Translations under genes and position numbers: made by a program
Notes under the pieces: generated by a model
Databases searched by the model: none
What the model saw: the letters and a program-made list of their open reading frames with translations, nothing else
Told to the model about the DNA's origin: nothing
Part shown: in pieces, positions 40,066-64,000 of the stretch
How positions within the stretch are numbered: the first letter of the stretch is position 1
How the letters are laid out: every line of letters begins with the position of its first letter
NCBI RefSeq assembly: GCF_044324785.1
Contig: NZ_CP172129.1
Origin: Escherichia coli
GTDB lineage: Bacteria > Pseudomonadota > Gammaproteobacteria > Enterobacterales > Enterobacteriaceae
Reading direction: 5' to 3' (one strand)
Length of the DNA: 64,000 nucleotides

Positions 40066-41340
40066 TTGTTTCGCCAGGATGCTTTAGAAAACAGAAAAAT
40101 GAAGTGGCAGGGACGGGCAATATTACTTCCCGGAATACCACTGTGGTTAATCATGCTGGGAAGCATTGTGTTTATTACGGCATTTCTGATGTTCATTATT
40201 GTTGGTACCTATAGCCGCCGTGTTAATGTCAGTGGTGAGGTCACAACCTGGCCAAGAGCTGTCAATATATATTCAGGTGTACAGGGATTTGTTGTCAGGC
40301 AGTTTGTTCATGAAGGGCAGTTGATAAAAAAAGGGGATCCTGTTTATCTGATTGACATCAGTAAAAGTACACGCAATGGTATTGTCACTGATAATCATCG
40401 CCGGGATATAGAAAACCAGCTGGTTCGTGTGGACAACATTATTTCCCGTCTGGAAGAAAGTAAAAAAATAACGCTAGATACCCTGGAAAAACAACGTCTG
40501 CAATACACAGATGCGTTCCGTCGCTCATCAGACATTATACAGCGTGCAGAGGAAGGGATAAAAATAATGAAAAATAATATGGAGAATTACAGATACTATC
40601 AGTCAAAAGGACTGATTAATAAAGATCAATTAACTAACCAAGTTGCATTATATTATCAACAACAAAACAACCTTCTCAGTCTGAGCGGACAAAATGAACA
40701 AAATGCCCTGCAGATAACCACTCTGGAGAGTCAGATTCAGACTCAGGCAGCAGATTTTGATAATCGTATCTATCAGATGGAACTGCAACGACTCGAATTG
40801 CAGAAAGAACTGGTTAACACTGATGTGGAAGGCGAAATCATTATCCGGGCGTTGTCTGACGGGAAAGTTGACTCCCTGAGTGTCACTGTAGGGCAAATGG
40901 TCAATACCGGAGACAGCCTTCTGCAGGTTATTCCTGAGAACATTGAAAACTATTATCTTATTCTCTGGGTCCCGAATGATGCTGTTCCTTATATTTCGGC
41001 TGGTGACAAAGTGAATATTCGTTATGAAGCCTTCCCCTCAGAAAAATTTGGGCAGTTCTCTGCTACGGTTAAAACTATATCCAGGACTCCTGCGTCAACA
41101 CAGGAAATGTTGACCTATAAGGGAGCACCTCAAAATACGCCGGGTGCCTCTGTTCCCTGGTATAAAGTCATTGCGACGCCTGAAAAGCAGATAATCAGGT
41201 ATGACGAAAAATACCTCCCTCTGGAAAATGGAATGAAAGCCGAAAGTACACTATTTCTGGAAAAAAGGCGTATTTACCAGTGGATGCTTTCTCCTTTCTA
41301 TGACATGAAACACAGTGCAACAGGACCGATCAATGACTAA
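40066..41340 (+). CDS. cvaA: CvaA, colicin V secretion membrane-fusion protein (HlyD family)
   Basis: 424-aa ORF (TTG start as in the track) with N-terminal TM and HlyD-type adaptor; precedes cvaB. Confidence 0.85.
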
Positions 41341-42109
41341 CAGGAATTTCAGACAAATTATAAATCTGCTTGATTTGCGCTGGCAACGTCGTGTTCCGGT
41401 TATTCATCAGACGGAGACCGCTGAATGTGGACTGGCCTGCCTAGCAATGATATGCGGTCATTTTGGTAAGAATATTGACCTGATATATCTTCGCCGGAAG
41501 TTTAATCTCTCTGCCCGTGGAGCAACCCTTGCAGGAATCAATGGAATAGCGGAGCAACTGGGGATGGCCACCCGGGCTCTTTCACTGGAGTTGGATGAAC
41601 TTCGAGTCCTCAAAACGCCGTGTATTCTCCACTGGGATTTCAGTCACTTCGTCGTTCTGGTCAGCGTAAAGCGTAACCGTTATGTACTGCATGATCCGGC
41701 CAGGGGCATAAGATATATCAGCCGGGAGGAAATGAGCCGATATTTTACAGGCGTTGCACTTGAGGTCTGGCCCGGAAGTGAATTCCAGTCGGAAACCCTG
41801 CAGACCCGCATAAGTCTTCGTTCACTGATTAACAGTATTTACGGTATTAAAAGAACGCTGGCGAAAATTTTCTGTCTGTCAGTTGTAATTGAAGCAATCA
41901 ATCTGCTAATGCCGGTGGGGACACAGCTGGTTATGGATCATGCTATTCCTGCGGGGGACAGAGGGCTACTGACGCTAATTTCTGCTGCTCTTATGTTTTT
42001 TATATTACTCAAAGCTGCAACGAGTACGCTGCGCGCATGGTCTTCACTGGTTATGAGCACGCTCATCAATGTACAGTGGCAGTCGGGGCTGTTCGATCAT
42101 CTTCTCAGA
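41333..42109 (+). pseudogene. cvaB: cvaB 5' portion (C39 peptidase domain and first TM segments), interrupted by IS903
   Basis: [20 protein letters not shown]…ETAECGLACLAMI… reading frame ends at the IS903 left end after …LFDHLL. Confidence 0.85.
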
Positions 42110-43166
42110 GGCTTTGTTGAATAAATCGAACTTTTGCTGAGTTGAAGGATCAGATCACGTATCTTCCCGACAACGCAGACCGTTCCGTGGCAAAGCAAAA
42201 GTTCAAAATCACCAACTGGCCCACCTACAATAAAGCCCTCATCAACCGTGGCTCCATAACTTTCTGGCTGGATGATGAAGCTATTCAGGCCTGGTATGAG
42301 TCAGCAACACCTTCTTCACGAGGCAGACCTCAGCGCTATTCTGACCTTGCCATCACTACTGTGCTGGTCATTAAACGCGTATTCAGGCTGACCCTGCGGG
42401 CTGCGCAGGGCTTTATTGATTCCATTTTTTCTCTGATGAACGTTCCGCTACGCTGCCCGGATTACAGCTGTGTCAGCAGGCGGGCAAAGTCGGTTAATGT
42501 CAGTTTCAAAACGCCCACCCGGGGTGAAATCGCACACCTGGTAATTGATTCCACCGGGCTGAAGGTCTTCGGTGAAGGCGAGTGGAAAGTCAAAAAGCAT
42601 GGCCAGGAACGCCGCCGTATCTGGCGTAAGCTGCATCTCGCCGTTGACAGTAAAACACATGAAATCATCTGCGCTGACCTGTCGCTGAACAACGTTACGG
42701 ACTCAGAGGCCTTCCCCGGGTTAATCCGGCAAACCCACCGGAAAATCAGGTCAGCCGCCGCCGATGGCGCTTACGATACCCGGCTATGTCACGATGAACT
42801 GCGGCGTAAGAAAATCAGCGCGCTTATCCCTCCCCGAAAAGGTGCGGGTTACTGGCCCGGTGAATATGCAGACCGTAACCGTGCAGTGGCTAATCAGCGA
42901 ATGACCGGGAGTAATGCGCGGTGGAAATGGACAACAGATTACAACCGTCGCTCGATAGCGGAAACGGCGATGTACCGGGTAAAACAGCTGTTCGGGGGTT
43001 CACTGACGCTGCGTGACTACGATGGTCAGGTTGCGGAGGCTATGGCCCTGGTACGAGCGCTGAACAAAATGACGAAAGCAGGTATGCCTGAAAGCGTGCG
43101 TATTGCCTGAAAACACAACCCGCTACGGGGGAGACTTACCCGAAATCTGATTTATTCAACAAAGCC
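42110..43166 (+). mobile_element. IS903 (IS5 family), 1057 bp, flanked by 9-bp target-site duplication CTTCTCAGA
   Basis: Terminal inverted repeats GGCTTTGTTGAATAAATCG… at 42110 and …TTTATTCAACAAAGCC ending at 43166; direct repeats CTTCTCAGA at 42101-42109 and 43167-43175. Confidence 0.85.
42142..43110 (+). CDS. IS903 transposase
   Basis: 322-aa ORF filling the element; DDE-type transposase. Confidence 0.8.
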   Translation: MKDQITYLPDNADRSVAKQKFKITNWPTYNKALINRGSITFWLDDEAIQAWYESATPSSRGRPQRYSDLAITTVLVIKRVFRLTLRAAQGFIDSIFSLMNVPLRCPDYSCVSRRAKSVNVSFKTPTRGEIAHLVIDSTGLKVFGEGEWKVKKHGQERRRIWRKLHLAVDSKTHEIICADLSLNNVTDSEAFPGLIRQTHRKIRSAAADGAYDTRLCHDELRRKKISALIPPRKGAGYWPGEYADRNRAVANQRMTGSNARWKWTTDYNRRSIAETAMYRVKQLFGGSLTLRDYDGQVAEAMALVRALNKMTKAGMPESVRIA

Positions 43167-44495
43167 CTTCTCAGACTACCGCTGGCGTTTTTTGAACGCC
43201 GAAAATTAGGTGATATCCAGTCACGTTTTGACTCCCTTGACACATTGAGGGCCACATTTACCACCAGTGTGATCGGGTTCATAATGGACAGCATTATGGT
43301 TGTCGGTGTTTGTGTGATGATGCTGTTATACGGAGGATATCTCACCTGGATAGTTCTCTGCTTTACCACAATTTACATTTTTATTCGTCTGGTGACATAC
43401 GGCAATTACCGACAGATATCAGAAGAATGTCTTGTCAGGGAGGCCCGTGCCGCCTCCTATTTTATGGAAACATTATATGGTATTGCCACGGTAAAAATCC
43501 AGGGGATGGTCGGAATTCGGGGGGCACACTGGCTTAATATGAAAATAGATGCGATAAATTCGGGTATTAAGCTAACCAGGATGGATTTGCTCTTCGGAGG
43601 AATAAATACCTTTGTTACCGCCTGTGATCAGATTGTAATTTTATGGCTGGGAGCAGGCCTTGTGATCGATAATCAGATGACAATAGGAATGTTTGTAGCG
43701 TTTAGTTCTTTTCGTGGGCAGTTTTCGGAAAGAGTTGCCTCTCTGACCAGTTTTCTTCTTCAGCTAAGAATAATGAGTCTGCACAATGAGCGCATTGCAG
43801 ATATTGCATTACATGAAAAGGAGGAAAAGAAACCTGAAATTGAAATCGTTGCTGATATGGGGCCAATATCCCTGGAAACCAATGGTTTAAGCTATCGTTA
43901 TGACAGTCAGTCAGCACCGATATTCAGTGCTCTGAGTTTATCTGTAGCTCCGGGGGAAAGTGTGGCTATAACTGGTGCTTCCGGTGCGGGAAAAACCACA
44001 TTAATGAAAGTACTATGTGGACTATTTGAACCTGATAGCGGGAGGGTACTGATAAATGGTATAGATATACGCCAAATTGGAATAAATAATTATCACCGGA
44101 TGATAGCCTGTGTTATGCAGGATGACCGGCTATTTTCAGGCTCAATTCGTGAAAATATCTGTGGTTTTGCAGAGGAAATGGATGAAGAGTGGATGGTAGA
44201 ATGTGCCAGAGCAAGTCATATTCATGATGTTATAATGAATATGCCAATGGGATATGAAACATTAATAGGTGAACTTGGGGAAGGTCTTTCTGGCGGTCAA
44301 AAACAGCGTATATTTATTGCACGAGCCTTATACCGGAAACCAGGAATATTATTTATGGATGAGGCAACCAGTGCTCTTGATTCAGAGAGTGAACATTTCG
44401 TGAATGTTGCCATAAAAAACATGAATATCACCAGGGTAATTATTGCACACAGAGAAACAACGTTGAGAACTGTTGATAGAGTTATTTCTATTTAA
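43167..44495 (+). pseudogene. cvaB: cvaB 3' portion (remaining TM domain and ABC ATPase)
   Basis: Frame resumes …RLPLAFFERRKLGDIQSRF… after the IS903 duplication; Walker A GASGAGKTT, signature LSGGQKQR. Confidence 0.85.
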
Positions 44496-52580: not shown

Positions 52581-53190
52581 TTATCACCTCGTCATTACTA
52601 CGTATATACACAGTATATAACGATTCAGATATCGTCACCAGAATATGCCGCGTCAGCGGCATGGAAGGCGGCACTCTGTTGTTGCATATGACACAGGAGT
52701 AAAACCGCCGAAGCCCGGCGTAAGCCGGTACGGACTGATAGATTTCACCTTACCCATCCCCAGCCCTGCTAGGCCATATCCGCTTTCAGCCATGATAAAG
52801 CTTCTGTGCGCGGTCGGAGTGGTCCCGACGAGGGTTTACCCGAAGTCGGGGCGTATCTCCGCGTTAGCGGGCCGTCAGGGCCGCTTACGAGCGTGTACTC
52901 AATACTTTCAGCGAGAAGACTGACAGCCATGATGGAGTATAGTTACAACATTCATAATTAAAAGCGACTCTGTTCCGGCCCGAAGGGCCGGGGCGGGGCC
53001 GCTTTTCAGTTATGAGGGAGGGGCTTTGTGGTTTCAGTTCTGCGCTGGTTCGGGGTTTTTCTGGAGGTTGGTTTTGTGTGTTGTAACTAAAGTGGCTCCG
53101 GTTGGGGCCCGCCGTTTACGGTGGGAGGTGCATATCTGTCTGTCCACAGGACAGGCAGTGAATAGGTTTTCTTTTTAAATGAATGTAATT

Positions 53191-53228
53191 GGGGAGCCCG
53201 CAGAATTCGGAAAAAATCGTACGCTAAG
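53191..53228. repeat. 38-bp Tn3-superfamily terminal inverted repeat (GGGGAGCCCGCAGAATTCGGAAAAAATCGTACGCTAAG)
   Basis: GGGG…ACGCTAAG pattern overlapping the tnpA stop. Confidence 0.8.
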
Positions 53229-56190
53229 GTTTTCCGGGCATCCGTAAGGGCCGAAACTTCCCGTCTTCCAGTCTGCGGCTCTGCCGCCAGACGTAATCGC
53301 CGGTTAGGTTGATGTGCTCCCAGCCCAGCGGCGACAGGAATTGCAGCAGCTCGCCGTCCACCGGCTTGCCGGCCTCGACCAACCCCTGGGTGGCGCGTTC
53401 CAGGTACACCGTGTTCCACAGCACGATAGCCGCCGTCACCAGGTTGAGGCCGCTGGCCCGGTAGCGCTGCTGCTCGAAGCTCCGATCCCTGATTTCCCCA
53501 AGGCGGTTGAAGAACACCGCCCTGGCCAGCGAGTTGCGCGCCTCACCTTTGTTCAGGCCGGCATGCACGCGGCGGCGCAGTTCAACACTTTGCAGCCAGT
53601 CCAGGATGAACAGCGTGCGCTCGATCCGGCCCAGCTCGCGCAGGGCCACGGCCAGTCCGTTCTGGCGCGGGTAGCTGCCGAGCTTGCGCAGCATCAGCGA
53701 GGCGGTGACGGTGCCCTGCTTGATCGAGCTGGCCAGGCGCAGGATGTCGTCCCAGTGGGCACGCACGTGCTTGATGTTCAGGGTGCCGCCGATCAGCGGG
53801 CGCAACGTCGGGTAGGCTTGCACGCCCTGCGGCACGTACAGCTTGGTTTCGCCGAGGTCGCGGATGCGCGGCGCGAAGCGGAAGCCTAGCAGGTGCATCA
53901 GGGCAAAGACGTGATCGGTGAAGCCGGCCGTGTCGGTGTAGTGCTCCTCGATCCGCAGGTCGGACTCGTGGTACAGCAGGCCGTCGAGCACATAGGTGGA
54001 ATCGCGGACGCCGACATTCACCACGCGGGTGCTGAACGGCGCGTACTGGTCGGAGATATGGGTATAGAACAGCCGTCCCGGCTCGCTACCGTACTTCGGG
54101 TTGACGTGCCCGGTGCTCTCGCCCCGGCCACCCGCGCGGAAGCGCTGGCCATCGGAGGATGAGGTCGTGCCGTCGCCCCAGTGGGCGGCAAAGGCGTGGC
54201 GATACTGGTGGTTGACCAGCTCGGCCAAGGCCGCCGAATAGGTTTCGTCGCGGATGTGCCAGGCTTGCAGCCAGGACAGCTTGGCGTAGGTCAGGCCGGG
54301 GCTCGACTCGGCCATCTTGGTCAGCCCGAGGTTGATCGCATCACCGAGGATTGCGGACAGCAGCAACGTCCTGTCTTTGGCCTCGGCCCCGTCCTTCAAG
54401 TGGGTGAAGTGGCGGCTGAAGCCCGTCCAGTCGTCCACGTCCATCAGCAGTTCGGTGATCTTGATGCGCGGCAGTAACTGGCTGGTTTGGTCGATCAGCG
54501 CCTGCGCCCGATCCGGCACCGCCGCATCCAGCGGGGTGATTTTCAGCCCTGACTCGGTGAGGATGGCATCGGGCAGCTCGTTGTCCTTGGCCAGGCGGGT
54601 GACGGTGGCCAACTGCTCGTCCAGCAGCTGCAAACGCTCTTCCAGGTACTGGTCGCTGTTCGGGTTGATCGCCAGGGGCAGGGCCTGCTCGCGCTTGAGT
54701 GCGGCGAACTTCTCGGCCGGCAGCAGGTAGTCGTCGAAGTCGCGGAACTGCCGCGAGCCCTTGACCCAGATGTCGCCGGAGCGCAGGGCGTTCTTCAGCT
54801 CGGACAGGGCGCAGATTTCGTAGAATTTCCGGTCGAGGCCTTCCGGGGTGATCACCAGCGGCTTCCAGCGCGGCTTGATGAAGGCCGTGGGTGCATCGGC
54901 CGGCACCTTGCGCAGGTTGTCGGCGTTCATCTCACGCAGGGTCTGCACGGCTGCCAGCACGCCTTGCGCGGCCGGCGCGGCGCGCAGTTCCAGCACCTCC
55001 AGCAAGGCCGGCGTGTAACGGCGCAGGGTGGCGAAGTTCTCGCCGACCAGGTGCAGGTGGTCGAAGCCTTCCGGCCGGGCCAGCAGCTCGGCCTCGCTGA
55101 CGCTCTCGGTGAACTCGTCCCAGGGAATCACCGCCTCGATGGCGGCATAGGGGTCGCTGCCGCTTTCCTTCGCTTCCAGCAGCGCCTGGCCGATCCTGGA
55201 GTACAGGCGCACCTTGTCGTTGATCGCCTTGCCCTGCTTCTGGAACTGCTGCTGATGCTTGTGCTTCGCGCCGCTGAACAGCTTGACCAGGATGCGGTCA
55301 TGCAGATCGACCAGCTCATCGATCACGGTCGCGGTGCTCTCCAGCACCACGGCGGCCAGGGTCGCGTAGCGGCGCTGCGGCTCGAACTTACCGAGGTCTT
55401 TGGGCGTCATCTGCCCACCCTCGCGGGCCAGCTTGAGCAGGCGGTTCTGGTGGATGTGCCGGCCCAGGCCTTCGGGCAAGTCCACCAACTGAAATGTCTT
55501 CAGCCGCTCGATGTGTTCCAGCATGTGCCGAGAGTTGGGTTTCAGCGGTGCCTGGCGCAGCCAGGTCAACCAGGTGATGCTGCTGCCGGCCTTGAGCTTC
55601 AACAGCTCGTCCAGCTTGGCCCGATGCGAGTCCGTGAGTGGTTCGACCAGGGCGCGGTAGACCCGCCGATTGGCTCGCGCAATGGCTTCCGAGCAGGCCC
55701 GGTCAATCACGCTCAGCGCCGGCAGGATGCGTCGTTTCTGCCGTAGGCTCTCCAGGGCCTGACCGGCCAGCAGCAAGCCTTTGTCGGTCTGCTGGGCCAG
55801 CTCGGTTAGCTCGCGCACCAGGGCGCGGAAGTCGGACAGGCCGAACGGGGCCAGTTGCAGGTAGGTGCGCAGTTCCTGGGCATGCTCGCGACGGGTCACG
55901 TCGCGCTCGCCGTACTTTGCCCAGCTCGCCGGCTCGGCCTGGACTTGCTTCGCCACCCACAGGATGACCGGCTCGGGCAGCTCGCTGTCGGTTCCCAGCG
56001 CGTAACCGGGGTAGCGCAGCAGGCAGAGCTGCACGGCGAAGCCGAGGCGGTTGGCGTCGCCGCGTCGCTGGCGGATCAGCGACAGGTCGGAGTCGTTGAA
56101 GGTGTAGTAGCGGATCAGGTCATCCTGGCTTTCCGGCAGCGCAAGCAGGGTGTCCCGCTCCGTGGCCGAGAGGATCAAGCGACGCGGCAT
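53224..56190 (-). CDS. tnpA: Tn21-family transposase TnpA
   Basis: 988-aa ORF with DDE transposase of the Tn3 family. Confidence 0.9.
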
Positions 56191-56193
56191 GTG

Positions 56194-56754
56194 TCAGTCG
56201 TCCGTGCGGAGGTACTGGTAGAGGGTTTCCCGGCTGATGTTGAACTCGCGGGCAAGCTGCGCCTTGGGCTCGCCGGCCGTCGCTCGCTGCCGCAGGGTAG
56301 CAGCCTGCTCATCGGACAGGGCTTTCTTGCGGCCCCGGTACGCGCCACGCTGCTTGGCCAAGGCGATGCCCTCACGCTGCCGCTCGCGGATCAGGGCGCG
56401 CTCGAACTCAGCGAAGGCCCCCATCACCGACAGCATCAGGTTGGCCATCGGCGAGTCCTCGCCAGTGAACACCAGGCCCTCCTTCAGGAACTCGATGCGC
56501 ACGCCGCGCTGAGTCAGCTTCTGTACCAAGCGACGCAGGTCATCGAGGTTGCGGGCCAGCCGATCCATGCTGTGCACCACCACTGTATCGCCTTCGCGGA
56601 CGAAGCTCAGCAGCGCTTCGAGCTGGGGGCGCTGGGTGTCCTTGCCCGATGCCTTGTCGGTGAACACCTTGCTCACCTGGGTTTGTTCCAGCTGGCGTTC
56701 CGGGTTCTGGTCAAAGCTGCTGACCCGGACGTAGCCGATGCGGTGCCCCTGCAC
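56194..56754 (-). CDS. tnpR: Tn21-family resolvase TnpR (serine recombinase)
   Basis: 186-aa ORF MQGHRIGYVRVSSFDQNPERQ… with catalytic serine region and C-terminal HTH. Confidence 0.9.
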   Translation of the reverse strand: MQGHRIGYVRVSSFDQNPERQLEQTQVSKVFTDKASGKDTQRPQLEALLSFVREGDTVVVHSMDRLARNLDDLRRLVQKLTQRGVRIEFLKEGLVFTGEDSPMANLMLSVMGAFAEFERALIRERQREGIALAKQRGAYRGRKKALSDEQAATLRQRATAGEPKAQLAREFNISRETLYQYLRTDD

Positions 56755-56929
56755 GATGTCTCCTTGGTTGAAGGCGGCTTAAGTGCACTTTCTGTTCCGT
56801 TGTGCCTCAAAGCCCATTTCTGTCAGGCTGAAATCTATAACCTTCGCGGGCATGTGTCAAAAAATGGGAAAGCAGACTCTATTCTGACGAAGCGGCGCGG
56901 CCCTGCCTGACATCAAGTTAGGGTATGCC
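56755..56929. promoter_or_regulatory. res (resolution) site region between tnpR and tnpM
   Basis: Position immediately upstream of tnpR as in Tn21; sub-sites not individually mapped. Confidence 0.5.
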
Positions 56930-57280
56930 TCAACCTGACGGCGGCGAATCACAAGCGTCCGGTTTGACGCTGGTTTCGGTCGCAGTGCTGGCCCGCGCCT
57001 GGAAGCGCTGATAGCACTCCAGCCCGCAGAAATGCTCCACGTACTCGGCCCCTTCCGGCGTGAAGGCGGCATCGAGCGGGATTTCCTTGCAGCACACGCA
57101 GCAACTGGTGCTCGGTTCATTGGCGTTCATGGTGGTGTTCCTCCATTGGTTGACGAAGCCGACGAAGGCCGCCGCCGGCATCGGCCTGGCGAACAGGAAA
57201 CCCTGCACCGTGTCGCAACCCGCCTGCCGCAACCACGCAAGGCAGTCGGGTGTTTCCACACCCTCGGCTACCACCTCCAT
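56930..57280 (-). CDS. tnpM: TnpM (urf2M), Tn21 transposition modulator
   Basis: 116-aa ORF starting [19 protein letters not shown]…, ending adjacent to res and beginning at IRi. Confidence 0.7.
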
Positions 57281-57305
57281 TGTCGTTTTCAGAAGACGGC
57301 TGCAC
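57281..57305. repeat. IRi, 25-bp inverted repeat at the intI1 end of the class 1 integron
   Basis: TGTCGTTTTCAGAAGACGGCTGCAC. Confidence 0.8.
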
Positions 57306-57482
57306 TGAACGTCAGAAGCCGACTGCACTATAGCAGCGGAGGGGTTGGATCCATCAGGCAACGACGGGCTGCTGCCGGCCATCAGCGGACGCAGGGAGGA
57401 CTTTCCGCAACCGGCCGTTCGATGCGGCACCGATGGCCTTCGCGCAGGGGTAGTGAATCCGCCAGGATTGACTTGCGCTGCC

Positions 57483-58496
57483 CTACCTCTCACTAGTGAG
57501 GGGCGGCAGCGCATCAAGCGGTGAGCGCACTCCGGCACCGCCAACTTTCAGCACATGCGTGTAAATCATCGTCGTAGAGACGTCGGAATGGCCGAGCAGA
57601 TCCTGCACGGTTCGAATGTCGTAACCGCTGCGGAGCAAGGCCGTCGCGAACGAGTGGCGGAGGGTGTGCGGTGTGGCGGGCTTCGTGATGCCTGCTTGTT
57701 CTACGGCACGTTTGAAGGCGCGCTGAAAGGTCTGGTCATACATGTGATGGCGACGCACGACACCGCTCCGTGGATCGGTCGAATGCGTGTGCTGCGCAAA
57801 AACCCAGAACCACGGCCAGGAATGCCCGGCGCGCGGATACTTCCGCTCAAGGGCGTCGGGAAGCGCAACGCCGCTGCGGCCCTCGGCCTGGTCCTTCAGC
57901 CACCATGCCCGTGCACGCGACAGCTGCTCGCGCAGGCTGGGTGCCAAGCTCTCGGGTAACATCAAGGCCCGATCCTTGGAGCCCTTGCCCTCCCGCACGA
58001 TGATCGTGCCGTGATCGAAATCCAGATCCTTGACCCGCAGTTGCAAACCCTCACTGATCCGCATGCCCGTTCCATACAGAAGCTGGGCGAACAAACGATG
58101 CTCGCCTTCCAGAAAACCGAGGATGCGAACCACTTCATCCGGGGTCAGCACCACCGGCAAGCGCCGCGACGGCCGAGGTCTTCCGATCTCCTGAAGCCAG
58201 GGCAGATCCGTGCACAGCACCTTGCCGTAGAAGAACAGCAAGGCCGCCAATGCCTGACGATGCGTGGAGACCGAAACCTTGCGCTCGTTCGCCAGCCAGG
58301 ACAGAAATGCCTCGACTTCGCTGCTGCCCAAGGTTGCCGGGTGACGCACACCGTGGAAACGGATGAAGGCACGAACCCAGTGGACATAAGCCTGTTCGGT
58401 TCGTAAGCTGTAATGCAAGTAGCGTATGCGCTCACGCAACTGGTCCAGAACCTTGACCGAACGCAGCGGTGGTAACGGCGCAGTGGCGGTTTTCAT
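57483..58496 (-). CDS. intI1: Class 1 integron integrase IntI1
   Basis: 337-aa [52 protein letters not shown]…. Confidence 0.95.
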
Positions 58497-58651
58497 GGCT
58501 TGTTATGACTGTTTTTTTGTACAGTCTATGCCTCGGGCATCCAAGCAGCAAGCGCGTTACGCCGTGGGTCGATGTTTGATGTTATGGAGCAGCAACGATG
58601 TTACGCAGCAGGGCAGTCGCCCTAAAACAAAGTTAACCCGGAACCAAAATT
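58497..58651. other. attI1 recombination site and cassette promoter region (5'-conserved segment)
   Basis: …GCCCTAAAACAAAGTTA… junction immediately before the first cassette. Confidence 0.7.
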
Positions 58652-59125
58652 GTGAAAGTATCATTAATGGCTGCAAAAGCGAAAAACGGAGTGATTGGTT
58701 GCGGTCCACACATACCCTGGTCCGCGAAAGGAGAGCAGCTACTCTTTAAAGCCTTGACGTACAACCAGTGGCTTTTGGTGGGCCGCAAGACGTTCGAATC
58801 TATGGGAGCACTCCCTAATAGGAAATACGCGGTCGTTACTCGCTCAGCCTGGACGGCCGATAATGACAACGTAATAGTATTCCCGTCGATCGAAGAGGCC
58901 ATGTACGGGCTGGCTGAACTCACCGATCACGTTATAGTGTCTGGTGGCGGGGAGATTTACAGAGAAACATTGCCCATGGCCTCTACGCTCCATATATCGA
59001 CGATTGATATTGAGCCGGAAGGAGATGTTTTCTTTCCGAATATTCCCAATACCTTCGAAGTTGTTTTTGAGCAACACTTTAGCTCAAACATTAACTATTG
59101 CTATCAAATTTGGCAAAAGGGTTAA
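58652..59125 (+). CDS. dfrA5: Trimethoprim-resistant dihydrofolate reductase cassette, DfrA5-like (possibly DfrA14)
   Basis: 157-aa ORF with GTG start, [40 protein letters not shown]…; first cassette after attI1. Confidence 0.8.
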
Positions 59126-59202
59126 CAAAGCTATGCAATTGACGGTAAAAAGCTTCGTTCGCTTCGCTTGCTACGCTTCTTACCGCAATTGATAACGGCG
59201 TT
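59126..59202. other. attC (59-base element) of the dfrA cassette, followed by about 21 bp of 3'-conserved segment before IS26
   Basis: Imperfect palindrome ending in core GTTAGAT; then GCACTAAGCACATAATTG (start of 3'-CS) abutting the IS26 end. Confidence 0.6.
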
Positions 59203-59223
59203 AGATGCACTAAGCACATAATT

Positions 59224-60383
<1,160 letters not shown>

Positions 60384-60553
60384 TACGCCTATTTTTATAG
60401 GTTAATGTCATGATAATAATGGTTTCTTAGACGTCAGGTGGCACTTTTCGGGGAAATGTGCGCGGAACCCCTATTTGTTTATTTTTCTAAATACATTCAA
60501 ATATGTATCCGCTCATGAGACAATAACCCTGGTAAATGCTTCAATAATATTGA

Positions 60554-61426
<873 letters not shown>

Positions 61427-61535
61427 CTGTCAGACCAAGTTTACTCATATATACTTTAGATTGATTTAAAACTTCATTTTTAATTTAAAAGGATCTAGGT
61501 GAAGATCCTTTTTGATAATCTCATGACCAAAATCC

Positions 61536-61573
61536 CTTAACGTGAGTTTTCGTTCCACTGAGCGTCAGACCCC
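61536..61573. repeat. 38-bp terminal inverted repeat of Tn2/Tn3 (bla end)
   Basis: CTTAACGTGAGTTTTCGTTCCACTGAGCGTCAGACCCC. Confidence 0.9.
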
Positions 61574-61575
61574 TT

Positions 61576-61960
61576 ATGGCAGAGCAGGGAAAGGAATTGC
61601 CGGGCTATGTGCAACGGGAATTTGAAGAATTTCTCCAATGCGGGCGGCTGGAGCATGGCTTTCTACGGGTTCGCTGCGAGTCTTGCCACGCCGAGCACCT
61701 GGTCGCTTTCAGCTGTAAGCGTCGCGGTTTCTGCCCGAGCTGTGGGGCGCGGCGGATGGCCGAAAGTGCCGCCTTGCTGGTTGATGAAGTACTGCCTGAA
61801 CAACCCATGCGTCAGTGGGTGTTGAGCTTCCCGTTTCAGCTGCGTTTCCTGTTTGGGGTCGTTTGCGGGAAGGGGCGGAATCCTACGCTAAGGCTTTGGC
61901 CAGCGATATTCTCCGGTGAGATTGATGTGTTCCCAGGGGATAGGAGAAGTCGCTTGATAT
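61576..61960 (+). pseudogene. N-terminal fragment of an IS91-family-like transposase (zinc-ribbon domain), truncated by IS26
   Basis: ORF …GRLEHGFLRVRCESCHAEHLVAFSCKRRGFCPSCGARRMAESAALLVDE… with Cys/His cluster typical of IS91-family N-termini; ends at the IS26 terminus. Confidence 0.5.
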
Positions 61961-62780
61961 GGCACTGTTGCAAATAGTCGGTGGTGATAAACTTATCATC
62001 CCCTTTTGCTGATGGAGCTGCACATGAACCCATTCAAAGGCCGGCATTTTCAGCGTGACATCATTCTGTGGGCCGTACGCTGGTACTGCAAATACGGCAT
62101 CAGTTACCGTGAGCTGCAGGAGATGCTGGCTGAACGCGGAGTGAATGTCGATCACTCCACGATTTACCGCTGGGTTCAGCGTTATGCGCCTGAAATGGAA
62201 AAACGGCTGCGCTGGTACTGGCGTAACCCTTCCGATCTTTGCCCGTGGCACATGGATGAAACCTACGTGAAGGTCAATGGCCGCTGGGCGTATCTGTACC
62301 GGGCCGTCGACAGCCGGGGCCGCACTGTCGATTTTTATCTCTCCTCCCGTCGTAACAGCAAAGCTGCATACCGGTTTCTGGGTAAAATCCTCAACAACGT
62401 GAAGAAGTGGCAGATCCCGCGATTCATCAACACGGATAAAGCGCCCGCCTATGGTCGCGCGCTTGCTCTGCTCAAACGCGAAGGCCGGTGCCCGTCTGAC
62501 GTTGAACACCGACAGATTAAGTACCGGAACAACGTGATTGAATGCGATCATGGCAAACTGAAACGGATAATCGGCGCCACGCTGGGATTTAAATCCATGA
62601 AGACGGCTTACGCCACCATCAAAGGTATTGAGGTGATGCGTGCACTACGCAAAGGCCAGGCCTCAGCATTTTATTATGGTGATCCCCTGGGCGAAATGCG
62701 CCTGGTAAGCAGAGTTTTTGAAATGTAAGGCCTTTGAATAAGACAAAAGGCTGCCTCATCGCTAACTTTGCAACAGTGCC
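61961..62780 (+). mobile_element. IS26 (820 bp), copy 2, inverted relative to copy 1
   Basis: GGCACTGTTGCAAA at 61961 and TTTGCAACAGTGCC at 62767-62780. Confidence 0.95.
62024..62728 (+). CDS. tnp26: IS26 transposase Tnp26
   Basis: Protein sequence identical to copy 1. Confidence 0.95.
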   Translation: MNPFKGRHFQRDIILWAVRWYCKYGISYRELQEMLAERGVNVDHSTIYRWVQRYAPEMEKRLRWYWRNPSDLCPWHMDETYVKVNGRWAYLYRAVDSRGRTVDFYLSSRRNSKAAYRFLGKILNNVKKWQIPRFINTDKAPAYGRALALLKREGRCPSDVEHRQIKYRNNVIECDHGKLKRIIGATLGFKSMKTAYATIKGIEVMRALRKGQASAFYYGDPLGEMRLVSRVFEM

Positions 62781-63238
62781 CTCTTGTCCTCGTCCGGTAA
62801 GAAGTCGGGATTGACGGCATTGCGGGACACCACATCAACGGCGCGTCCGAACATTCGCGACAGCCTGCGCTCAAACGGACATTGATCAACCGATAGGCTG
62901 TGAACAGCGCCAAGTTGCTGCCCCATTGACGGCCACGCTTTGAGCAAATCCGCTCCAGACAGATCAGCCGCCGGTACTCCCGGAATTGCCGTTATCACCA
63001 AGCATGCACCCTCCTGTTCCTCCTGCCAGTTGATGACCTCGGGGCAAGCCACACCTCGACCTTTGAGCCAAATGAGGCGGTCACGCTCTCCAGCGAGCTC
63101 ACCGCGGCGGGAAGCAGGTGCGATTTTCGCGAAGGCATGCCCGTCACCACGTCGAAAAACAAAATCACCAGATTCTCCGCCTCTGACAGGCAACCAGTCA
63201 GAATGCGATTCACCAAAAAAAATATTAGTTCGATTCAA
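62781..63238 (-). pseudogene. strA: strA / aph(3'')-Ib, 5' portion only (about 153 codons), 3' end removed by IS26
   Basis: MNRTNIFFGESHSDWLPVRGGESGDFVFRRGDGHAFAKIAPASRRGELAGERDRLIWLKG… then …DEDK fused to IS26 sequence. Confidence 0.9.
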
Positions 63239-63298: not shown

Positions 63299-64000
63299 TT
63301 AACGAATTCTTGCGGTTTCTTTTAGCGCCGCCAATACCGCCAGCCCGTCGCGCAAGGGGCGCGGCTCGTGTGTGCGGATGAAGTCAGCTCCACCTGCGGC
63401 GGCGGCAAGCTCTGCAGCGAGTGTCGCGGCCCCGACATCCCCCGGACCACGGCCTGTGAGCGCGCGCAGAAAGGATTTGCGCGAAACAGACAGAAGCACC
63501 GGCAAATCGAAGCGCAGCCGCAATTCATCGAACCGCGCCAGCACCGAGAGCGAGGTTTCGGGAGCAGCCCCCAGAAAAAACCCCATGCCGGGATCAAGGA
63601 CAAGGCGGTTGCGTTTGATACCGGCACCCGTCAGCGCCGCGATGCGCGCGTCAAAGAACGCCGCAATGTGATCCATGATGTCGCCAGCGGGTGCCTCGCG
63701 CCGATCTGCCTGCCCGTCTTGCACCGAATGCATAACGACGAGTTTGGCAGATGATTTCGCCAATTGCGGATAGAACGCAGCGTCTGGAAAACCGCGAATA
63801 TCATTGAGATAGGCCACACCACGCGACAAGGCATAGGCTTGCGTCGCGGGTTGATAACTGTCGAGCGAGACGGGAATGCCATCTGCCTTGAGCGCGTCCA
63901 GCACCGGCGCGATACGCTCGATTTCTGTGTCGGACGAAACAGGCGCGGCGTCGGGGTTGCTGGATGCCGGACCGAGGTCGATCACATCTGCCCCCTCGGC
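63299..64000 (-). CDS. sul2: Sul2 sulfonamide-resistant dihydropteroate synthase; 5' end lies beyond the window
   Basis: …DLGPASSNPDAAPVSSDTEIERIAPVLDALKADGIPVSLDSYQPATQAYALSRGVAYLNDIRGFP…; the reading frame continues to the window edge. Confidence 0.9.
   Translation of the reverse strand, partial: AEGADVIDLGPASSNPDAAPVSSDTEIERIAPVLDALKADGIPVSLDSYQPATQAYALSRGVAYLNDIRGFPDAAFYPQLAKSSAKLVVMHSVQDGQADRREAPAGDIMDHIAAFFDARIAALTGAGIKRNRLVLDPGMGFFLGAAPETSLSVLARFDELRLRFDLPVLLSVSRKSFLRALTGRGPGDVGAATLAAELAAAAGGADFIRTHEPRPLRDGLAVLAALKETARIR

Follow-up and report, generated by a model that had tools for sequence, protein, structure and literature searches.

The locus examined here raises the question of what is left of a class 1 integron that runs into a copy of IS26 shortly after its only gene cassette, how the missing part was lost, and whether the remaining platform can still exchange cassettes. 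In the 64,000-nucleotide stretch of Escherichia coli DNA that was analysed (the window), the integron spans positions 57281-59224, as read from the sequence, and IS26 follows directly at 59225-60044. The structure is the already known and widely spread dfrA5-IS26 atypical class 1 integron, a named signature in epidemiology since 2010, which the preliminary description did not recognize. We are highly confident that it is this known integron, with the 3'-conserved segment (3'-CS) deleted by IS26, now located on a ColV/ColIa plasmid with its platform intact.

Anatomy of the integron and its junction with IS26

The following elements were recognized, in window coordinates:

57281-57305, + strand: IRi, the 25-bp inverted repeat at the intI1 end of a class 1 integron (exact match to TGTCGTTTTCAGAAGACGGCTGCAC)
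57483-58496, - strand: intI1, full-length class 1 integrase of 337 aa, R32/H39 variant (NCBIfam NF011946, catalytic residues, DNA identity)
58381-58409, + strand: cassette promoter Pc, weak variant PcW, TGGACA-N17-TAAGCT, without TGN extension (pattern match)
58500-58525, + strand: inactive P2, TTGTTA-N14-TACAGT, without GGG insertion (pattern match)
58509-58524: LexA-box-like CTGT-N8-ACAG, overlapping P2 and the intI1 promoter region (pattern match)
58560-58632, + strand: attI1 recombination site, crossover G58632/T58633 (read from sequence)
58633-59200, + strand: dfrA5 gene cassette, 568 bp, with ORF 58652-59125 (GTG start, 157 aa)
59120-59206, + strand: attC (59-base element) of dfrA5, 87 bp, inverse core GGTTAAC, core site GTTAGAT
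59201-59224, + strand: 3'-CS remnant, 24 bp, TTAGATGCACTAAGCACATAATTG (longest 3'-CS prefix present in the window)

The preliminary description stated that intI1 and attI1 are retained and recommended inspection of intI1 for inactivating changes. Both elements are present. The intI1 ORF of 1,014 nt encodes 337 amino acids that match the NCBIfam integron-integrase equivalog NF011946 over positions 1-337 of 337 (799.5 bits), the catalytic residues R146, K171, H277, R280, H303 and Y312 are all in place, and the gene has the same DNA sequence as its counterpart in pO26-CRL, which is annotated as WP_000845048.1. The CTGT-N8-ACAG motif at 58509-58524 presumably serves as a LexA box. The insertion point for cassettes reads AAAACAAAG|TTAACC at 58632/58633, with attI1 adjoining intI1 and the cassette starting at G|TTA. 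Up to position 58635, the 5'-CS is 99.9-100% identical to that of integrons with other cassette arrays.

The Pc variants are those defined in Table 1 of PMC2791841. An active P2 requires a spacer of 17 nt (PMC2791841); with its 14-nt spacer, the P2 of the window is inactive. A generic promoter and terminator scan of 58300-59400 returned no match; PcW fails the 4-of-6 rule of that scan, which makes it uninformative on Pc. These features predict low-level expression of dfrA5 and competence for recombination when IntI1 is made.

Where a single dfrA cassette had been described, one cassette is indeed found, and it can be specified as dfrA5. Its ORF scores 302.5 bits with the NCBIfam profile trim_DfrA1_like of the DfrA1-like family of trimethoprim-resistant DHFRs (cutoff 250), and many records with identical DNA annotate the product as DfrA5, WP_001317507.1. 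The unit consists of one ORF plus an attC and is bounded by G|TT crossovers, as is proper to a gene cassette. Folding of the attC bottom strand gives a long, imperfectly paired hairpin, the 3' arm of which has two bulged bases; the fold energy, with a z-score of -1.0, is not better than that of shuffled sequence, and the fold was used for architecture only. The site is identical in the three integrons that were aligned, i.e. those of the window, pO26-CRL and pNT1F34-tetX4. A hybrid promoter reading outward from IS26 into attC was looked for by eye, and there is no convincing -10 element at 16-18 nt.

Directly after the attC end GTTAGAT the sequence reads GCACTAAGCACATAATTG, followed at 59225 by IS26 opening with GGCACTGTTGCAAA. 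Counted, as is customary, from TTAGAT onward, the 3'-CS remnant covers 59201-59224. The preliminary description was right in recognizing a short 3'-CS remnant, its length being 24 bp instead of about 21; the string that it quoted forms the last 18 of these 24 bp, and the boundary with IS26, which it drew after 59223, lies at 59224/59225. The three aligned integrons are identical through ...GTTAGATGCACTAAGCACATAATTG. After the 24 bp, pNT1F34-tetX4 continues with CTCACAGCC...ATGAAAGGCTGG into qacEdelta1 and then reaches an IS26 of its own, whereas the window and pO26-CRL pass from the 24 bp straight into IS26. This alignment identifies the sequence after attC as 3'-CS, and the attempt at refutation on this point failed. 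No further 3'-CS, qacE or sul1 sequence was detected in the 64-kb window; alignment and search agree with the earlier statement that IS26 abuts the start of the 3'-CS and that qacEdelta1 and sul1 are removed.

With a typical clinical integron such as In2 of Tn21, the window has in common its 5'-CS (IRi, intI1, Pc, attI1), the way in which the cassette is built and the first bases of the 3'-CS. Unlike an integron with a complete 3'-CS, it is missing qacEdelta1, sul1 and orf5, and no tni remnant is in view; of the 3'-CS with qacEdelta1 and sul1 that defines the clinical (sul1-type) form, 24 bp are left. The IRt and tni remnant found at the far end of that form would be located past position 64000; in relatives the last IS26 is followed by truncated tniA. 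In pNT1F34-tetX4, which also carries dfrA5, IS26 lies inside qacEdelta1, its insertion point being 186 bp further in than in the window.

The 8 bp that abut IS26 are CATAATTG, positions 17-24 of the 3'-CS. Normal insertion of IS26 creates an 8-bp target duplication (PMC4196232). IS26 copy 1 is bordered on its two sides by different sequences, CATAATTG and GCCGATAT, and so lacks such a duplication; this is what a deletion, or a later exchange between IS26 copies, would be expected to leave.

The downstream resistance array and the carrier transposon

Downstream of the integron the window contains:

59225-60044, - strand: IS26 copy 1, 820 bp, tnp26 at 59277-59981 (3' end facing the integron), with perfect 14-bp inverted repeats and an IS6-family transposase
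within 60045-61960, + strand: Tn2 fragment with the 3' part of tnpR and blaTEM-1 at 60566-61426 (NCBIfam blaTEM)
about 61576-61960, + strand: short ISCR2-type fragment (NCBIfam ISCR clade Ia)
61961-62780, + strand: IS26 copy 2, identical to copy 1 and inverted
62781-63238, - strand: first 154 codons of strA (aph(3'')-Ib), cut by IS26 copy 2 (NCBIfam APH(3'')-Ib profile, positions 1-154 of 267)
63299-64000, - strand: sul2, cut by the window end, 228 of 271 codons visible (NCBIfam Sul2 profile, positions 44-271 of 271)

The two insertion sequences have the features that define IS26, namely a length of 820 bp, 14-bp terminal inverted repeats and an IS6-family transposase; the window contains four matches to the 14-bp repeat, against 0 expected by chance. 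Positions 60045-61960 are 100% identical to pO26-CRL, where TEM-1 is annotated, and the segment appears to be the first part of a Tn6029-like array. In Tn6029 the order is IS26, a Tn2 fragment with blaTEM-1, IS26, an RSF1010 fragment (repA/C-sul2-strA-strB) and IS26. Compared with this layout, IS26 copies 1 and 2 and the blaTEM-1 segment are identical to those of pO26-CRL, strA is truncated, strB is missing, and the window ends before a third IS26. The proposal that sulfonamide resistance is supplied separately by sul2 is borne out, sul2 lying downstream as the sole sulfonamide gene in the window.

At its left flank IS26 copy 2 keeps CTTGATAT, and its right flank lies inside strA. The same IS26 in plasmid p1 of E. 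coli EcPF20 (NZ_CP071442.1) has CTTGATAT on both sides, and relative to that plasmid 1,190 bp are missing from the window, comprising strB and the 3' 113 codons of strA. The exact IS26/strA junction gave no match in either sequence collection searched. This comparison suggests that a second IS26 deletion, private to the window lineage, removed strB and the 3' part of strA, a loss that probably abolishes streptomycin resistance.

Upstream, the integron is flanked by transposon sequences:

53188-56742, - strand: Tn1721/TnAs1-like transposition module, with Tn3-family transposase and serine recombinase (NCBIfam)
53188-53225: 38-bp terminal inverted repeat of this module
53224-56190, - strand: Tn1721/TnAs1-like tnpA, 988 aa
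56194-56754, - strand: Tn1721/TnAs1-like tnpR, 186 aa
56907-57280, - strand: Tn21-type sequence flanking the integron, a tnpM/urf2 remnant (identity to pO26-CRL)

The transposition module is about 77-79% identical to Tn21 tnpA/tnpR of pO26-CRL and 99.99% identical to EcPF20 p1, whose transposase carries a TnAs1-family annotation. Identity between the window and pO26-CRL is 99.98% from 56907 on, and an ORF at 56930-57544 bears an EAL-domain tail (NCBIfam). As to Tn21 linkage, the tnpM side (56907-57280) is Tn21, whereas tnpR and tnpA are Tn1721-like at about 78% identity. The carrier is a Tn1721/Tn21 hybrid transposon, in which the change from Tn1721 to Tn21 sequence falls within the res region, after 56742 and before 56907. 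The integron is unable to move alone; no tni genes are in view, and its mobility depends on the carrier. The rest of the window is a ColV/ColIa IncF virulence plasmid; genes identified on it are those for colicin Ia and a MacB-like ABC exporter, cvaA/cvaB and the iro genes.

Descent, distribution and loss of the 3'-CS

The closest published element is that of pO26-CRL, pO26-CRL125 and pO111-CRL115, which like the window has intI1, attI1, a lone dfrA5 and exactly 24 bp of 3'-CS. In pO26-CRL the IS26 is in the same orientation, the Tn2/blaTEM-1 fragment and a second, inverted IS26 follow, and Tn21 tnpM lies beside IRi. From IRi to the end of IS26 copy 2 (57281-62780) the window is 100% identical to pO26-CRL (NC_013728.1) over 5,500 bp. 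The two differ on either side of this stretch: the left transposase and resolvase genes are Tn1721-like in the window and Tn21 in pO26-CRL, and the sul2-strA segment after the second IS26 is inverted and truncated in the window, with loss of strB. The hosts also differ, a ColV/ColIa IncF plasmid for the window as opposed to an IncFIB/IncI-type plasmid for pO26-CRL and IncZ/I1 plasmids for pO26-CRL125 and pO111-CRL115 (PMC3817090). Among ColV/ColIa IncF plasmids that carry this resistance region, EcPF20 p1 is 99.99% identical to positions 53188-62782, a stretch that takes in the hybrid transposon sequences, the integron and both IS26 copies of the window, and it has the same colicin Ia/yacAB backbone. 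EcPF20 p1 carries in addition the Tn1721 tet(A) module and intact strA-strB, both absent from the window.

The identity to pO26-CRL bears on whether the window junction could be independent of the published lineage, created by a new IS26 event at a preferred target. The same 8-bp target has been used independently at least once elsewhere. The 5,500-bp identity, however, runs across the cassette, both IS26 copies and the boundary of the Tn2 fragment, which argues for common descent, and we regard a separate origin as extremely improbable.

The structure was sequenced by Dawes et al. in 2010, who reported a typical 5'-CS, a complete dfrA5 cassette, a 3'-CS deleted except for 24 bp, and IS26; by PCR they found it in 31 bovine and human E. 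coli strains, with linkage to Tn21 tnpM-tnpR-tnpA in 20 of the 31 (PMC2939871). The same integron was described in pO26-CRL, pO26-CRL125 and pO111-CRL115 by Venturini et al. in 2013 (PMC3817090), and later papers treat dfrA5-IS26 as an often-reported genetic signature (PMC7355456, PMC4908116). Together these publications cover the 24-bp remnant, dfrA5, the Tn21 linkage and Tn6026 (PMC2939871, PMC3817090, PMC7355456, PMC4908116). In the window this signature is found as a junction at 59224/59225, identical to that of pO26-CRL and downstream of the dfrA5 attC. Venturini 2010 is reportedly a further source of the "24-bp" signature, named along with Dawes 2010 and Venturini 2013.

The distribution of the junction was examined with an 84-bp probe consisting of the 24-bp remnant and the first 60 bp of IS26, counting only rows with 100% identity and 100% coverage. 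BLAST found it in 42 plasmid records and in 34 complete E. coli genome records, 1 of them chromosomal. With dfrA5 present at 99% identity or more in about 154 plasmid records, roughly a quarter of the sequenced plasmid-borne dfrA5 cassettes occur in this truncated arrangement. Looser counts were discarded: a coverage of at least 80% of a 1,004-bp query gave 97 plasmids and 80 genomes, numbers inflated by joined BLAST pieces, and at least 80% coverage of the 84-bp probe gave 2,187 records from BLAST alignments extended through mismatches. An exact-pattern scan for a 32-nt junction in genome and metagenome contig collections returned 0 matches and is uninformative, one collection holding a single genome per species and IS26 breaking metagenome assemblies.

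The recurrence also bears on whether the junction is real. The window contains two identical IS26 copies, and repeats of this kind cause misjoins in short-read assemblies, by which a contig ending in the 3'-CS could be wrongly joined to an IS26 copy. Against such an artefact, the junction recurs base for base in the 42 plasmid and 34 genome records, which come from many laboratories; the same 5.5-kb arrangement is present in pO26-CRL, and PCR products across the dfrA5-IS26 junction have been sequenced from several strains (PMC2939871). The concern about a chimeric junction, raised in the preliminary description, is dispelled by the exact recurrence, and we give an assembly error practically no weight.

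As to how the 3'-CS was lost, the closest relatives provide the far end. The last IS26 of the array in EcPF20 p1 has a tniA flank CATCGGCGTAG..., and the far IS26 abuts the truncated tniA, with flank CATCGGCG..., in EcPF20 p1 as well as in three plasmids with a single IS26. In these three plasmids the lone IS26 lies between the 24 bp and the same tniA flank as in EcPF20 p1. The window itself ends at 64000 inside sul2, and the deletion end point in tniA is the putative one taken from these relatives. Alternatively, IS26 might have entered by plain insertion or inversion, with the qacEdelta1-sul1 remainder of the 3'-CS surviving elsewhere on the plasmid. There is a precedent in pK254-qnrS of Klebsiella michiganensis, where both halves of the target are found next to two inverted IS26 copies and CATAATTG is duplicated. 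The absence of any more 3'-CS, qacE or sul1 from the 64 kb and the tniA flank of the far IS26 in the closest relatives, where 3'-CS would otherwise be met, make this very unlikely, and the literature likewise calls the loss a deletion (PMC2939871, PMC3817090, PMC4908116).

Anatomy, identity to published elements and recurrence of the junction are direct observations; for the deletion we infer the following mechanism and order of events. A clinical class 1 integron with a lone dfrA5 would originally have occupied the In2 position of a Tn21-type mercury transposon. An IS26-mediated adjacent deletion would then have removed an interval that begins at 3'-CS position 25 and ends within tniA, with loss of qacEdelta1, sul1, orf5 and most of the tni region, leaving IS26 abutting CATAATTG. 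IS26-bounded segments, consisting of aphA1, a Tn2 fragment carrying blaTEM-1 and an RSF1010 fragment carrying sul2-strAB, may subsequently have been added beside the resident IS26 by the targeted conservative route of IS26 movement (PMC4196232), giving rise to Tn6029/Tn6026. Recombination between IS26 copies would produce variants, and spread would proceed by plasmid transfer and recombination in repeats. In the window lineage the Tn21 transposition genes would have been swapped for Tn1721-like genes at the res site. The single-IS26 forms may be ancestral or derived, and the array could also have preceded the deletion.

The window is a further occurrence of a known structure and presents no new biology; specific to it are the ColV/ColIa version with the Tn1721/Tn21 hybrid and the private IS26 deletion. 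The arrangement combines trimethoprim resistance with blaTEM-1 and sul2, to which relatives add strAB and aphA1, on virulence plasmids that are common to human, livestock, companion-animal and environmental E. coli. Standard 5'-CS/3'-CS PCR fails on this structure (PMC2939871), which escapes detection because the 3'-CS primer site is gone.

The IS26 target and cassette exchange

The junction probe is blind to the cassette, and two records were found in which the identical 24 bp-IS26 junction, orientation of IS26 included, is preceded by other arrays. One is an IncA plasmid of Serratia marcescens, with aadB-aadA2 before the junction. The other is pK254-qnrS, with aac(6')-Ib-cr-arr-3-dfrA27; here IS26 has the same CATAATTG target, position and orientation as in the window, after dfrA27, whereas the cassette array differs and the reciprocal half and the target duplication are kept. 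After its second IS26, which is inverted, pK254-qnrS reads CATAATTGCTCACAGCC..., a 3'-CS start repeated ahead of aadA16. The presence of CATAATTG on both sides points to an in-situ insertion of IS26, independent of the dfrA5 lineage. Additionally, two E. coli IncF plasmids have only the reciprocal junction, in the order IS26-CATAATTGCTCACAG-qacEdelta1-sul1-chrA-padR-IS6100. Near-matching IS26 flanks were also inspected and set aside; their surroundings are unrelated (msr(E), mef(B), a diguanylate cyclase gene), and the resemblance of one of them to the target, at 14 of 17 positions, may be due to chance.

From these junctions IS26 has used CATAATTG at least twice in the same orientation, possibly three or four times. 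We consider it possible, at somewhat less than even chance, that CATAATTG is a recurrent, i.e. preferred, target of IS26. Dawes et al. argued against a hot spot (PMC2939871); in the light of the present data a hot spot may be considered again. A literature search for the CATAATTG target together with IS26 yielded an unrelated primer only, and this side result on target preference may be new. If it is true, the 24-bp/IS26 signature has more than one origin and needs the dfrA5 attC beside it to be diagnostic; independent hits on the same 8 bp call for a little caution in inferring common descent from the junction by itself. For the Serratia array, replacement of cassettes by IntI1 on an inherited truncated platform would be an equally good explanation.

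IntI1 recombination does not need the 3'-CS. With intI1, attI1, attC and the GTTAGAT core apparently intact, both capture and excision of cassettes by the integron are plausible; since the 3'-CS has no role, the earlier suggestion that cassettes may continue to be captured is reasonable. Conversely, the integron could be a dead relic that has lost cassette exchange despite an intact-looking intI1, for example by tight LexA repression or missing context, and nearly all records with the junction do hold the same single dfrA5, which gives little sign of turnover. Such a loss of function seems unlikely to us: all parts for recombination are intact, IntI1 being able to act without a 3'-CS is established knowledge, and the R32/H39 form of IntI1, associated with weak Pc promoters, is the most excision-active variant (Jove et al., PMC2791841). 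The one record with aadB-aadA2 before the same junction could reflect a replacement of cassettes; if the Serratia array did arise in this way, it would constitute comparative evidence of a truncated platform that is still active.

Separate IS26 insertions at one 3'-CS target

The plasmid pK254-qnrS (NZ_OM938014.1, retrieved segment L012) carries an IS26 insertion at the 8-bp target used in the window, and this is a separate event from the one in the window. The common target, CATAATTG, corresponds to positions 17-24 of the class 1 integron 3'-CS, and IS26 is inserted there in the same orientation in both (compared with window 59201-59238). Both target halves are kept in pK254-qnrS, each beside one of two inverted IS26 copies; the first comes after the dfrA27 attC and the second lies ahead of a 3'-CS fragment and aadA16. 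A third context of the same target is found in NZ_CP147528.1 and NZ_CP147531.1 (segments L013 and L014), which possess the reciprocal junction only, the cassette side being gone, in the gene order IS26-CATAATTGCTCACAG-qacEdelta1-sul1-chrA-padR-IS6100-mphR(A).

Junctions at the IS26 target (coordinates within segments)
L012 738-1600: IS26/target junction of pK254-qnrS
L012 9702-10560: IS26/target junction of pK254-qnrS
L013/L014 4241-5103: reciprocal IS26 junction

The dfrA27-aadA16 array of pK254-qnrS contains two copies of the initial ~106 bp of the 3'-CS (L012 1558-1655 and 2500-2615), one on each side of aadA16; it looks as if aadA16 was integrated at a secondary site immediately upstream of the qacEdelta1 start.

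Related junctions and minimal forms

An IncA plasmid of Serratia marcescens (NZ_OW849492.1, segments L004 and L011) harbors an aadB-aadA2 array preceding the identical 24 bp-IS26 junction (L004 2381-2600), and the reciprocal target half is absent from this plasmid. The junction represents either another independent IS26 insertion or a truncated platform in which the cassettes were replaced. A minimal version of the dfrA5-IS26 structure, in which one IS26 joins the 24-bp 3'-CS remnant to truncated tniA, occurs on plasmids from E. coli GPEC874, 2022E04-002 and MS1685 (segments L008, L009 and L010, 2501-4600). Either this form is the ancestral product of the deletion, or it descends from a version whose Tn6026 was lost through IS26-IS26 recombination.

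Additionally, the IS26 flank CACTATGCAAATAGTTG upstream of msr(E) in NZ_LT985250.1 (segment L015, 1495-1523) agrees with the target region of the 3'-CS, CACTAAGCACATAATTG, in 14 of 17 positions, which could be chance or a hint at an IS26 target preference.

Surroundings of the integron in the window

The transposition module adjoining the integron (window 53188-56907) is Tn1721/TnAs1-like, with ~78% identity to Tn21, and meets Tn21 tnpM within the res region. The closest relative, EcPF20 p1, harbors a tet(A) module that the window lacks. Compared with EcPF20 p1, the window also has a 1,190-bp deletion at IS26 copy 2/strA: strA is joined to IS26 copy 2 at codon 154 (62767-63238) and strB is absent, and streptomycin resistance was probably lost in this plasmid. 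A search of 72,556 plasmid records and 5,426 complete E. coli genomes gave no match to this junction.

The gene for the colicin V exporter, cvaB (41315-44495), appears split in two.

Window features in the cvaB region
41315-42124: cvaB N-terminal part
42142-43110: IS5-family transposase gene, between both cvaB parts
43245-44495: cvaB C-terminal part

Between blaTEM-1 and IS26 copy 2 lies a short piece of a transposase gene of the ISCR2 type (ISCR clade Ia; 61576-61960), and the equivalent segment of pO26-CRL has an identical sequence.
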